DNA of 24,966 bases from a virus: the IMG/VR virus record IMGVR_UViG_3300021279_000046, one strand, 5' to 3'. This document shows positions 10,724-16,147 of this stretch, one piece after another (positions within the stretch are counted from its first letter, which is position 1; each line of letters starts with the position of its first letter). The notes beneath the pieces are model-generated. The model was not told the DNA's origin. It ran no database searches and saw only the letters and a program-made list of their open reading frames with translations. The translations under genes were made by a program, and so were the position numbers.

Positions 10724-11350
10724 ATGACAGATACAATTGTTTTATTGGAGGAAAGAAAGGAGATTACTACCTTCTTATTGGATGATGGGGTTAAAACATT
10801 AGTTGATAATGTAGTAACTGCATCAGGTAGTAGTCTTGGTTATGAATATTCCAATAAGTGCATGGTTGATGATATACTTTGTATTTCAGACAAATCTGCA
10901 ATAGGAAAAGAATGTTTAAGAAAATACACTGGTACAGAAGTTCCTGTTGGCGTCCTTGTCAATGAACCTGTTGTAATGACAGCGGGAGATAGAAAAGGAA
11001 GTGTATTATTATTGGGTGGACTTTACCGTTTGAAATTAGCTTCAGGCATTGTTAATGTTAAAGCAGGAGACCGGATTAAATTATCTCCAAGCGGAGCTAT
11101 TGTTGATAATGCCGGTGAGTTCATAGCGTTTCATCCTGTTGCAAATTCTGATGAATATGAATATGTCAATTGTTTCCAGGTTAGTCTTGGAGGTAAAGGA
11201 GAGAAAGGAGACACCGGAGATACAGGTGCTGCGACTGTTATCCTCGGGTCTTATGATACTTTCGAAGAACTTATAGCAGCACATCCAACTGCCAATGAAG
11301 GTGATGCATTCCTTGTTGATGGAGAACTCTTCGTTTGGCATAATGATTAA
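10724..11350 (+). CDS. Head-decoration-like protein, paralogue B, fused to short collagen stretch and a truncated linker domain
   Basis: Paralogous to 8410. Then [13 protein letters not shown] and TVILGSYDTFEELIAAHPT...GDAFLVDGELFVWHND. Start moved to ATG 10724 (track GTG 10715 is part of the GTGATA RBS). Confidence 0.65.
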   Translation: MTDTIVLLEERKEITTFLLDDGVKTLVDNVVTASGSSLGYEYSNKCMVDDILCISDKSAIGKECLRKYTGTEVPVGVLVNEPVVMTAGDRKGSVLLLGGLYRLKLASGIVNVKAGDRIKLSPSGAIVDNAGEFIAFHPVANSDEYEYVNCFQVSLGGKGEKGDTGDTGAATVILGSYDTFEELIAAHPTANEGDAFLVDGELFVWHND

Positions 11351-11383
11351 AAATCAAACTAAATAAATAGAGGTGTTTAATAC

Positions 11384-12256
11384 ATGGCATGGACAAGTGT
11401 AGGTACAATTAAAGGACCAAAAGGAGATACTGGTGATAAAGGAGACACTGGTGATACAGGTAAAGCATTTGAATATTCTGACTTTACTCCAGAACAGTTA
11501 GCAGGACTCACTGGTGAAAAAGGAGACACCGGAGACAAAGGTGATACCGGAGATGTAGGTGCAACTGGTGCAACTGGTGCTACCGGTGAAAAAGGAGACA
11601 CTGGAGCAACCGGTGAAACTGGTGCTAAAGGTGAAACTGGGGACACAGGAGCTACTGGCGCTACTGGAGCAACTGGTGCAACCGGAGATACTGGAGATCC
11701 ATTCAGTATTTACAAAACTTACGTATCCATTGAAGCAATGGAAGCAGATGCAGCTAATGTTCCTGAAGGAATGTTTGTAGCTATCCAATCCAATGTTGAA
11801 GATCCGGATAATGCAAAATTATACTTAAAAGGAGCATCTGAATTCAGTTTCGTAACTGACATGTCCGGTGCAACAGGTCTTAAAGGAGATACTGGTGCTA
11901 AAGGTGATACTGGAGATACTGGTGCAACTGGAGAAACAGGTGCTAAAGGTGATACAGGAGACCAAGGTCCTCAAGGATTAACCGGAGATAAAGGTGACAC
12001 AGGACAAACCGGTGATACTGGTGCTAAAGGAGACACCGGAGATACTGGGGACAAAGGTGATACTGGTGCTAAAGGAGACACCGGAGATACTGGTGCCAAA
12101 GGTGATACTGGGGATACTGGTGAAATGGGTCCTCAAGGATACAGTACCATTATCAAAGGAAGTTATGCCAGTTATGCTGATTTGATTGCAGCACATCCGA
12201 CTGGTACAACAGGTGATGCATATCTTGTTGATGGAGAACTTTACGTTTTCCAATAA
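11384..12256 (+). CDS. Collagen-like fibre protein 1
   Basis: Three Gly-X-Y runs (about 5, 21 and 30 triplets; [11 protein letters not shown]-rich) separated by FTPEQLAGL and FSIYKTY...DNAKLYLK...TDMSG linkers. GAGGTG RBS. Confidence 0.9.
12011..12093 (+). repeat. 38-bp exact direct repeat, 45-nt period, in collagen coding region
   Basis: GGTGATACTGGTGCTAAAGGAGACACCGGAGATACTGG at 12011-12048 and 12056-12093. Confidence 0.9.
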
Positions 12257-12273
12257 AATTCATAAAAATCCCT

Positions 12274-12312
12274 AAAAGGAAGTACTGGCTATTGTTGGTG
12301 CTTCCTTTTTTT
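12274..12312 (+). terminator. Hairpin plus T-tract terminator-like element
   Basis: AAAAGGAAGTAC (12274-12285) pairs with GTGCTTCCTTTT (12298-12309) with one G-T pair, running into a 7-T tract. Confidence 0.55.
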
Positions 12313-13787: not shown

Positions 13788-13797
13788 GGTTTAGATA

Positions 13798-14841
13798 ATG
13801 AGTATTGCAAGTAATGTTATAGAAGAAAACAACAGATTAGCAACAGCAAGGGCATTGCTGAGGGAAAAGTTAACTCTCAATAATGTTCACTGGGAGAATT
13901 CAGATACAATATTTGAACTGATAGCCAGATGGGAGAATACCGATGATGATTTAATGATTGAATATATTCGCCCAAATTCATGTTTTGCAGGAAATACTGT
14001 AGAGTTCGGAGCAAAAATAACAGTTTATGATTCCAACGATGATGAAGTGGCAGTAACAGGTGTGCCTGTAACAGTTATCATTAATGGTGCTGCTAATACC
14101 GTTTTAACTGACAGTAATGGAATGGCTGTGCAGTCATTTGATGTTGGAGCTATTGGAAGTACTGTGGAGGCTACTGTTTATGCAGGAACCAGTAGTAATA
14201 GCTGGTCTTATGAAGTTGTATCCTTTTACTTTAGTGAAGACAGCAAAACTGTTGAATCATATACCGTTGTTAAGCATCCAAGTTCTGCTACATTAACTTC
14301 ATCATCCTATGAGTTCGATTCAGGATATAATGATTACGGAGCTAAGATTTCAAAAGAAGTGGCCAGTGCAAGTGCAATATATCTGATTCCGACAGATTTA
14401 ATCAACGGTATTGATGCTGGAGAATACGGAATTCATATGCAGGCAAAAATAGTTGTAAAATACGGAAGTAGTTCTGGCTGGGCATGCGGTATAGGATTAT
14501 TGGCGAATAAGACTTTGGGTCATTATAGGGATACTCAAATTCTTGAACTTGGAGCATATCCCGGCAAAAAAGGTTTAAGATATTCAACAAGTGATCATGT
14601 CATAAGGGATTTGAATGTCACATCCGGACAACTGACACTGAACAGTGTATGGTACACTTTCGATTTATATTATAAGGACGGTAATGTTAATGCCACAATA
14701 AAAAACGGTGACAATGTAGTGTACAGTTATAGTGGGACAACATTAACATTTGAAACTGCATATCCTTTCCTGACAATATATGATTATGGCGGACAGATGA
14801 TTTTCAACAACGTTACTGTTGAAGAATGGGACGGTGAATAA
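13798..14841 (+). CDS. Putative fibre tip/adhesin protein 2 (Ig-like + ConA/LamG-like)
   Basis: N-terminal helix (EENNRLATARALLREKL), Big-like AVTGVPVTVIING...VLTDSNGMA, C-terminal WYTFDLYYKDG...IFNNVTV lectin-like pattern. GAGGT RBS. Confidence 0.6.
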   Translation: MSIASNVIEENNRLATARALLREKLTLNNVHWENSDTIFELIARWENTDDDLMIEYIRPNSCFAGNTVEFGAKITVYDSNDDEVAVTGVPVTVIINGAANTVLTDSNGMAVQSFDVGAIGSTVEATVYAGTSSNSWSYEVVSFYFSEDSKTVESYTVVKHPSSATLTSSSYEFDSGYNDYGAKISKEVASASAIYLIPTDLINGIDAGEYGIHMQAKIVVKYGSSSGWACGIGLLANKTLGHYRDTQILELGAYPGKKGLRYSTSDHVIRDLNVTSGQLTLNSVWYTFDLYYKDGNVNATIKNGDNVVYSYSGTTLTFETAYPFLTIYDYGGQMIFNNVTVEEWDGE

Positions 14842-14845
14842 AAAA

Positions 14846-16147
14846 ATGCCTGATACAGAATGGATAGAAATAGGTAGAGTAGTTGGTGATAGGGGACCTA
14901 AAGGAGATACTGGAGATATAGGTATTGGAACAGTGATAAAAGGACACTACAATACATATGAAGAGTTTATTAATGTTCATCCTTCAGGAAGACTGGGGGA
15001 TGTATATATTGTAGACGGTAGCTATTATTACTGGAATGAAAACGGCTGGGCAAATGCTGGTTCAATCAAAGGAGAAAAGGGAGACACTGGTGATAAAGGT
15101 GTTAAAGGCGATACTGGTGAGAAAGGCAGTAAAGGAGACAAAGGTGAGACTGGATCAACTGGAGAAAAAGGAGAAACTGGACCTAAAGGAGATACTGGAG
15201 ACACAGGACCTGCTGGAGATACTGGCCCGGCCGGGCCAACTGGGGACACTGGAGCTACTGGTGTTGGTCTTACTATTAAAGGTTCGTATAATACTTACGA
15301 GGAACTGATCAATGCTCATCCAGTAGGTAATGACGGAGACAGTTATTTGGTAAATGGCAGTCTCTATGTCTGGAACGGTATTATATGGGAAAACGTAGGA
15401 AACATCAAAGGAGATACTGGTGATGTGGGACCTAAAGGTGATACGGGTGTTAAAGGTGATACTGGTGATGCATTCACATTTGAAGATTTCGCACCAGAAC
15501 AACTTGCTGGTTTGAAAGGTCCAAAAGGTGATACTGGAGATACCGGTAAAACCGGAAGTAAAGGTGATACTGGTGCCAGTGGGTTTTCACCAATTGTTAA
15601 TATTAATCATGAAGATGGAAAAATAACAATTACATCTGAAGAAGGTTCAGCAACTATTTCATTTGATGAATTGAAAGGAGATACTGGAGCTACTGGTGAT
15701 GTGGGACCTAAAGGTGATACTGGAGAAAAAGGAGATACGGGTGCAACAGGTAAAACCGGTGCTAAGGGAGATACCGGACCTAAAGGTGATACGGGTGTTG
15801 GTAGTGATGAGGAAGCAGGATGGAAACTGCCAGTGGATAAAATCCAAACCACAACAACACTGCCAACAGGTGTTAGTAAAGGTTATCGTGTAGCTATTTG
15901 CACAAGCTCTCTTATGGCCATTAAAGAATACAATGGAAGTTCTTGGGATAGTGAATCTCTTGATCCATATTCCGTGATACCTTTAAAATATTCTGGAAGT
16001 ATACAGATGTATTTAGCAAAATCAACAGGGCCTGTTTATATGGGTGTTGAATATGGGATCTTTGGTAAGTTCAGGTTTATGACACAGGCAGCATATGATG
16101 CGTTAAGTAGCTATGATGAGGATACAATTTATTTTGTAAGAAGTTAA
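14846..16147 (+). CDS. Collagen-like fibre protein 3
   Basis: Start at ATG 14846 after GGTGA (track TTG 14819 overlaps the previous gene). Several Gly-X-Y runs, two complete linker domains, [11 protein letters not shown] motif, C-terminal [20 protein letters not shown] motif seen in phage fibre proteins. Confidence 0.9.
15415..15720 (+). repeat. 30-bp exact dispersed repeat inside collagen gene 3
   Basis: TACTGGTGATGTGGGACCTAAAGGTGATAC at 15415-15444 and 15691-15720. Confidence 0.85.

Follow-up and report, generated by a model that had tools for sequence, protein, structure and literature searches.

A small fibre domain split between consecutive genes in a Methanobrevibacter virus as a possible joint between collagen-like fibre segments

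In chaperone-usher pili, the fold of a subunit is short of its last strand, and the next subunit fills the gap with its N-terminal strand. To our knowledge, the joints of the long tail fibre of phage T4 are not known to consist of one small domain cut in two. This fibre is described in PMC5537660 as a head-to-tail series of separately encoded trimeric segments (gp34-gp35-gp36-gp37). In the crystal structure from phage Tuc2009, a hairpin of BppU completes one of the beta-sheets of BppA (PMC4742702). Here, we analyse a block of fibre genes in a stretch of viral DNA of 24,966 nucleotides (nt) from IMG/VR record IMGVR_UViG_3300021279_000046, which as a whole we call the window. The block encodes a domain of about 47 residues, lying between collagen-like stretches, that we call the knuckle. 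It is made of an A-part of 33 residues (I-K-G-S-Y...L-Y-V-W, with strand 1, a helix, strand 2 and strand 3) and a B-part (W-x-N-V-G-x-I-K-G). At two successive gene boundaries one protein ends with the A-part and the next one starts with the B-part. We put at roughly 0.6 the probability that the three proteins concerned, encoded by the genes starting at 10724 (base), 11384 (extension) and 12340 (adaptor), are consecutive segments of one trimeric collagen-like fibre, made separately and joined at the split knuckle.

The Tuc2009 pair provides a published precedent for this type of assembly, since separately made proteins of an adhesion device are joined there by completion of a sheet. Yet, in Tuc2009 an Ig/titin-like domain and a C-terminal hairpin are involved, in the baseplate of a bacterial siphovirus, whereas here the domain is an alpha/beta knuckle flanking collagen, the completing strand would be N-terminal, the virus is archaeal, and the system is known from sequence and prediction. 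The long tail fibre of T4 is also built from several proteins, but it contains no collagen and is found on the tail, not on the head. Pilins are Ig-like and monomeric and are assembled with a periplasmic chaperone and an usher, unlike the small alpha/beta fold considered here, and family scans found no chaperone or usher family in the fibre block. The domain itself also occurs in single-chain phage fibres, i.e. in annotated tail fibres of Erwinia jumbo, E. coli, crAss-like, Bifidobacterium (PMBT6) and Clostridioides phages (BppU family in C. difficile), and in the tail-fibre families PHROG 3904, 35286 and 15437. There, the same A+B domain stands between collagen stretches, with 35-57% identity, but it is continuous, whereas in the window two gene boundaries interrupt it, each within the turn that links strand 3 to strand 4. 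No paper in the library searched unites strand complementation with tail fibres. What is new here is a knuckle that flanks collagen and has no family model, its setting in an archaeal virus, the presence of two distinct junction pairs per fibre, and the existence of a single-chain relative.

The open reading frames (ORFs) and motifs of the window are as the original prediction had described them: the domain is cut at the corresponding point at both boundaries, and it is found unbroken twice in the protein of the gene starting at 14846 (Table 1). The base protein ends in ...GDAFLVDGELFVWHND, and the 33-nt spacer that follows does contain two further in-frame TAA and a Shine-Dalgarno-like sequence (SD) of its own. 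We surveyed the architecture of the block in about 65 loci, which yielded 48 base proteins with a terminal A-part, 32 complete extension proteins, all with the same architecture (B-part start, A-part end, 179-293 aa), and 32 adaptors starting with the B-part. Not one of these loci carries a base protein fused through its A-part to a B-part. The gene following a terminal A-part begins with M-x-W and the rest of the B-part in all 48 cases at junction 1 and in 32 of 34 at junction 2, both exceptions lying at contig ends. The ATG is placed exactly two codons ahead of the tryptophan. The copies of the A-part in related loci are all well recognisable (E about 1e-20 each), and among these loci no break was found at any other point of the knuckle.

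Both halves of the split domain evolve under constraint. Terminal A-parts have ratios of nonsynonymous to synonymous polymorphism (pN/pS) of 0.06 and 0.14, N-terminal B-parts of 0.20-0.29, and unbroken copies of 0.09-0.33. The two halves are thus under purifying selection, in ranges similar to those of the intact domain. Furthermore, each junction has its own signature pair. At junction 1, FVW-H(N/R)D goes with W-x-S-(V/A)-G..GPKG, and at junction 2, YV(F/Y)-Q goes with W-(V/I)-N-V-G..G(D/E)TG. The parts between the two halves are more labile. Extension-type proteins, very short ones included, range from 69 to 293 aa (P0055, 69 aa; P0061, 75 aa; L030:1320-1874; L033:7663-8202) and all retain the B-part plug and the A-part socket. 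They differ in length because collagen triplets and the middle domain have been gained or lost, and recombination within collagen repeats seems frequent.

The predicted fold places the cut at a precise position. We ran AlphaFold2 (AF2) on the second unbroken knuckle of the 14846 protein with an alignment of 21 diverse sequences, and obtained a predicted local distance difference test (pLDDT) of 93-96 over residues 11-50. The model contains a strand (13-17), a helix (20-26) and three further strands (35-38, 41-45, 50-55). Strand 3 closes the A-part, and after four residues the B-part forms strand 4, so that the cut falls in a tight hairpin turn. In unbroken copies the loop between these strands has 3-10 residues, mostly 4 or 6, and the overhangs at the cuts, HND plus (M)A and Q plus (M)S, sum to similar lengths. 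The tryptophan and the glycine of the B-part do not vary, either among the 21 diverse unbroken domains or among any of the N-terminal copies. With the cut in the modelled hairpin turn and these two residues invariant, donation of the strand in trans is plausible.

Searches for similar structures, by Foldseek and by an exhaustive comparison with 48,161 chains, gave concordant best matches. At the top stand the N-terminal 75 residues of ORF18 of Geobacillus virus E2 (Z 5.9). Collagens XVIII and XV follow at ranks two and three with their trimerization domains, matched over the whole domain (50-54 residues) with low Z (4.2-4.5), and small modules of phage tailspikes come next. The trimerization domain of collagens XV and XVIII sets the register of the collagen chains (PMC7852327). 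The modelled knuckle thus weakly resembles these domains, which fits its collagen context. These multiplexin domains (PDB 3N3F, 3HSH, 3HON) have about 54 residues, with strands and one helix, and lie directly at the end of a collagen helix; but they are animal domains, unsplit and without collagen on both sides, and share 4-17% identity with the knuckle and no sequence relation. When solved structures were searched by sequence, with the single domain and with a profile, only collagen repeats were matched and no relative of the knuckle. Prediction of a complex of three copies of base residues 150-208 with three copies of extension residues 1-45 scored 0.27, against a mark of 0.32 and without controls, and counts neither for nor against the joint. 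In the AF2 model of the whole base protein, the truncated A-part has low confidence and a shallow alignment, and we drew no inference from it.

The order of the segments can be read from relatives in which they are united. In four loci (L017, L055, L056, L057) a single protein of 285-321 aa aligns over residues 1-175 with the base (59% identity, E 4e-70) and over its last 95 residues or so with the adaptor (E 2e-23). Between these ends there is one collagen run and no knuckle, and both distal genes follow. This fusion of the base with the end of the adaptor supports the order base, extension, adaptor, distal proteins, and with it the order that had been proposed (decoration-like base, fibre 1, adaptor, tips). 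Nine minimal loci have two genes only, a base ending in the A-part and then a protein of 176-182 aa in which a B-part of the junction-1 type is followed by collagen and by a tip domain like that of the 14846 protein. In the tree of the anchor domain of the base, the single-chain forms make one clade (100/100), sister to one clade of all split forms (100/100), and the minimal form has at least two origins. Hence, on the evidence of this tree, the split was gained or lost once, and parts distal to the plug were exchanged more than once.

These elements can be put together in a simple scheme. The first segment would anchor the fibre, through its decoration-protein-like base and probably on the capsid, the second would lengthen it, and the third would end in an adaptor holding the two distal proteins encoded at 12687 and 13798. 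At each joint the end of the upstream protein would provide strand 1, the helix, strand 2 and strand 3 of the knuckle, and the first ten or so residues of the downstream protein (M-x-W-x-x-V-G-x-I-K-G) would provide strand 4, as hairpin partner of strand 3, leading directly into that protein's own collagen helix. The conserved half-pair proper to each junction would fix the order of assembly. One might speculate further that the cut knuckle is a reusable connector, in which two mutually exclusive socket-plug pairs dictate the succession of base, extension and adaptor, distal modules are swapped by recombination downstream of the plug, and the plug nucleates and registers the downstream triple helix, all this on head fibres anchored on the capsid of an archaeal virus. 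We consider this wider scheme as tentative, with the odds against it as a whole.

Could the pieces be genes that are broken, or that are expressed as one? Recoding, i.e. read-through, frameshifting or bypass fusing neighbouring genes, would be favoured by the shortness of the spacers and by the fact that junction 1 of the window is in frame. Yet, the two additional in-frame stops of this spacer stand against it. Among relatives, spacers range from 13 to 36 nt at junction 1 and from 24 to 94 nt at junction 2, and the downstream gene is found in any of the three phases, always with its own SD and ATG. Since the spacers vary in both length and phase, read-through, simple frameshifting and sequencing error are excluded. 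Junction 2 carries in addition a terminator-like hairpin. We therefore regard recoding as very improbable, and the claim that these are separate genes, and not the product of read-through or of an error, holds well, with the cuts at constant residues in about 50 loci. Even harder to believe is that we see the remains of a long ancestral fibre gene, mutated in a dead provirus or disrupted by misassembly. It is true that the window has no capsid or terminase genes after 16438 and that some relatives (L006, L033, L045, L066) have broken genes. But some 50 assemblies, produced by many different studies, have identical cuts, as does a complete circular virus genome of 34 kb, pN/pS is 0.06-0.29, and the domain is not broken elsewhere, so that decay or artefact is already contradicted.

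The alternatives in which the genes are separate and functional deserve more attention. The boundary between genes might simply coincide with a boundary between modules, the A-part being a self-sufficient C-terminal trimerizing cap, the B-part a self-sufficient start of collagen, and each protein attaching separately to the virion. Such a reading accounts for the N-terminal B-like piece of 14846-type proteins in single-chain loci, where no A-part partner exists, and for the resemblance of the knuckle to collagen XV and XVIII trimerization domains, which act on their own chain. It accommodates less easily that AF2 makes of the B-part the fourth strand of one small domain, with an invariant tryptophan, that a terminal A-part is always directly followed by an N-terminal B-part, and that a single-chain relative unites base and adaptor end. 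Moreover, neither family scans nor architecture reveal an anchoring domain in the extension or in the adaptor, which counts in favour of segments joined end to end. Hence, we think coincidence of modules rather unlikely. The architecture of the extension, from B-part to A-part, also suggests that it might add to itself, giving fibres of variable length capped by the adaptor, which has only a B-part. The distinct conserved pairs at the two junctions argue instead, as far as sequences can tell, for pairing with a cognate partner, and self-polymerization seems improbable to us.

Several observations nevertheless weigh against a fibre joined at the split knuckle, and this interpretation must be taken with care. 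In single-chain loci, which encode no protein with a terminal A-part, the B-like piece is still present at the N-terminus of the 14846-type protein, and the complete 34-kb vir323 genome has three N-terminal B-parts for two terminal A-parts. As B-parts outnumber terminal A-parts, an N-terminal B-part need not always have a partner, and this is the main caution about our central claim. The single-chain relatives lack the knuckle, hence they bear on the order of the segments and not on how these are joined. Since the split loci all fall in a single clade, for which one origin is inferred, the conservation of the cut does not amount to independent replication; it reflects the history of the lineage together with selection, not repeated invention. 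The structural matches of the modelled knuckle are weak (Z 4.2-5.9). Finally, what the analysis shows is the split, its conservation, the single-chain relative and the predicted position of the cut, while we infer the physical joint, its specificity and the location on the capsid.

The same observations bear on the 14846 protein, which had been proposed as an alternative branch of the fibre. This is not borne out, as its N-terminal B-like piece is retained in loci without any protein ending in an A-part. Its residues 408-432 match the 26-residue motif of Pfam Phage_tail_C (PF24243), with 40.6 bits for a cut-off of 23.7. The collagen family PF01391 matches both this protein (E 1.3e-20, 57 Gly-X-Y triplets) and the extension (E 6.5e-27, 59 triplets).

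The knuckle is widespread. No Pfam or NCBIfam model matched it. A profile of the 33-residue A-part retrieved 1300 proteins (E<=1e-3) among 1.84 billion representatives. About 250 of the 269 A-parts in the best 150 of these matches continue straight into a B-part and then into collagen, and so do 114 of the 118 A-parts into a B-part in 80 diverse IMG/VR loci, none of them being split. As the A-part mostly runs into a B-part, a continuous knuckle is the norm and its interruption an exception. Fragments aside, the sampled proteins that end right after the A-part all come from the Methanobrevibacter-virus lineage, and we found no independent split outside it among the 150 diverse profile matches or the 118 A-parts, both samples leaning to near relatives or to unbroken forms. 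One candidate in another lineage (P0002) was rejected, its gene being cut off by the end of the contig. The expectation that homologous loci would retain the breakpoint is thus borne out within this lineage; outside it, only unbroken domains were found.

Where might such fibres be attached? One of five AF2 models of the base protein is confident, with pLDDT of 80-90 over residues 11-150. The top nine structural matches of its anchor domain are all capsid decoration, cement or head-fibre proteins (Z 5.2-6.9, root mean square deviation about 2 A over 52-58 residues), from Borrelia phage BB1, phi29 (gp8.5), FCWL1, Haloferax virus HFTV1, T1, Pam3 and Sf11, and unrelated structures begin at Z 4.1. 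These matches agree with the label of decoration protein that the base had been given. The beta-tulip of phi29 gp8.5 and of cement proteins (PDB 6QYY, 8PKH, 9KZJ, 8QSY, 9KMG) aligns with the anchor domain as a moderate match. Yet, the head fibre of phi29 is one protein with a coiled-coil shaft, whereas here the shaft is collagen-like and in pieces, and capsid binding is putative. Paralogues of the anchor domain are found without any further ends directly upstream of the capsid genes in L017 (L017:11825-12310) and vir323, where the base gene itself is not located, with an extension of 90 aa in the window (8410-9186), and with a globular domain of about 230 aa just before the 14846-type gene (L015:13033-14205). 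Together these proteins look like related anchors on the surface of the virion, whose outer parts can be exchanged. The fold matches and the paralogue beside the capsid genes suggest that the fibres may stand on the head and not on the tail.

At the other end of the fibre, the gene of the first distal protein always follows the end of the adaptor, in split and single-chain loci alike, and distal proteins may dock on the adaptor C-terminus (..NLTLLGS). The 12687 protein had no match when scanned against the virus collection. It shares with the 13798 protein a similar helical N-terminus (..LSEILENEQ.., ..NVIEENNRL..), and the order of the two genes is reversed in L015, L018, L048 and L049.

Junction 2 has a feature of its own. 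A hairpin (AGGAAGTRC ... GYRCTTCCT) with a variable loop, followed by 7-9 T, is present in 22 of 26 distinct spacers, with a stem that is invariant or co-varying in 14 aligned loci; L046 and L048, with spacers of 30-32 nt, lack it. This hairpin resembles a terminator or attenuator, by which the proportion of proximal and distal parts of the fibre could be set.

The element carrying the block has a guanine-plus-cytosine content of about 30% in the window. Its closest public record is Caudoviricetes sp. vir323 (locus L002), a circular genome of 34,179 bp from goat faeces with Methanobacteriales as host, and the gene order from the portal to the fibre block is common to both. Relatives occur in 15 metagenome-assembled Methanobrevibacter genomes and 51 contigs from rumen and gut metagenomes. 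We assign the block to a tailed Methanobrevibacter virus. Contigs from RNA libraries of relatives cover the block and bridge junction 1, which shows its presence, not its transcription. Past a winged-helix gene, the window encodes a type I restriction system in 16163-24966 (hsdR, hsdM, hsdS, a recombinase and a second hsdS), and vir323 has capsid, lysis and terminase genes at the corresponding place (13420-34179). The window may thus be a partial or rearranged provirus. In some relatives the fibre or anchor genes are in 2-3 ORFs, with breaks at positions other than the cut (L006:13009-14420, L045:5864-6496, L033:6992-9144, L066, L067), suggesting that part of these proviruses are decaying. A glycosyltransferase-like gene (10119-10718; PHROG 1574, weak Pfam matches) ends 5 nt upstream of the base gene, and the collagen triplets are rich in threonine and poor in proline (GDT, GAT, GET). 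The fibres may hence be glycosylated.

Table 1. Coordinates of the fibre block and of its parts in the window.
Feature	Position	Strand	Remarks
Base protein, 208 aa	10724..11350	+	Anchor domain, 5 Gly-X-Y triplets, truncated knuckle; ORF and motif
Base anchor domain, beta-tulip-like	10724-11203	+	Fold match to capsid decoration proteins and phi29 gp8.5 base
Base terminal A-part	11240-11338	+	Followed by HND and stop (..FVWHND, stop)
Junction 1 spacer, 33 nt	11351..11383	+	Two further in-frame TAA
Junction 1 SD, GAGGTG	11370-11375	+	
Extension protein, 290 aa	11384..12256	+	B-part, collagen, middle domain of about 60 aa, collagen, A-part
Extension B-part, N-terminal	11390-11416	+	Gene start M-x-W
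Extension middle domain, about 60 aa	about 11699-11878	+	
Extension terminal A-part	12152-12250	+	Followed by Q and stop (..YVFQ, stop)
Junction 2 spacer, 83 nt	12257..12339	+	Hairpin, T-run, SD
Junction 2 hairpin arms	12277-12285, 12298-12306	+	T-run to 12312
Junction 2 SD, GGTGAT	12328-12333	+	
Adaptor protein, 113 aa	12340..12681	+	Starts MSWVNVGRIKG; short collagen runs
Adaptor B-part, N-terminal	12346-12372	+	
Adaptor conserved C-terminal 48 aa (..NLTLLGS)	12535-12678	+	Matches C-terminus of single-chain L017 protein, E 2e-23
Probable distal (tip) protein 1, 366 aa	12687..13787	+	Without family match
Probable distal (tip) protein 2, 347 aa	13798..14841	+	Without family match
Separate collagen fibre protein, 433 aa	14846..16147	+	B-like start, two unbroken knuckles, C-terminal tip
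14846 protein N-terminal B-like piece	14861-14887	+	More diverged (WIEIGRVVG)
14846 protein unbroken A+B knuckles	14936-15073, 15275-15412	+	

If the joint is real, it provides a way for viruses to build long collagen-like fibres from short genes, with distal host-binding parts that can be swapped while the anchor is left untouched. It would also supply protein engineers with a compact natural element for linking trimeric proteins in series, and assign a role to a widespread unnamed fibre domain. More generally, these results suggest that viruses of gut and rumen methanogens bear elaborate fibres, possibly carried by the capsid, which bears on how these viruses find their hosts.

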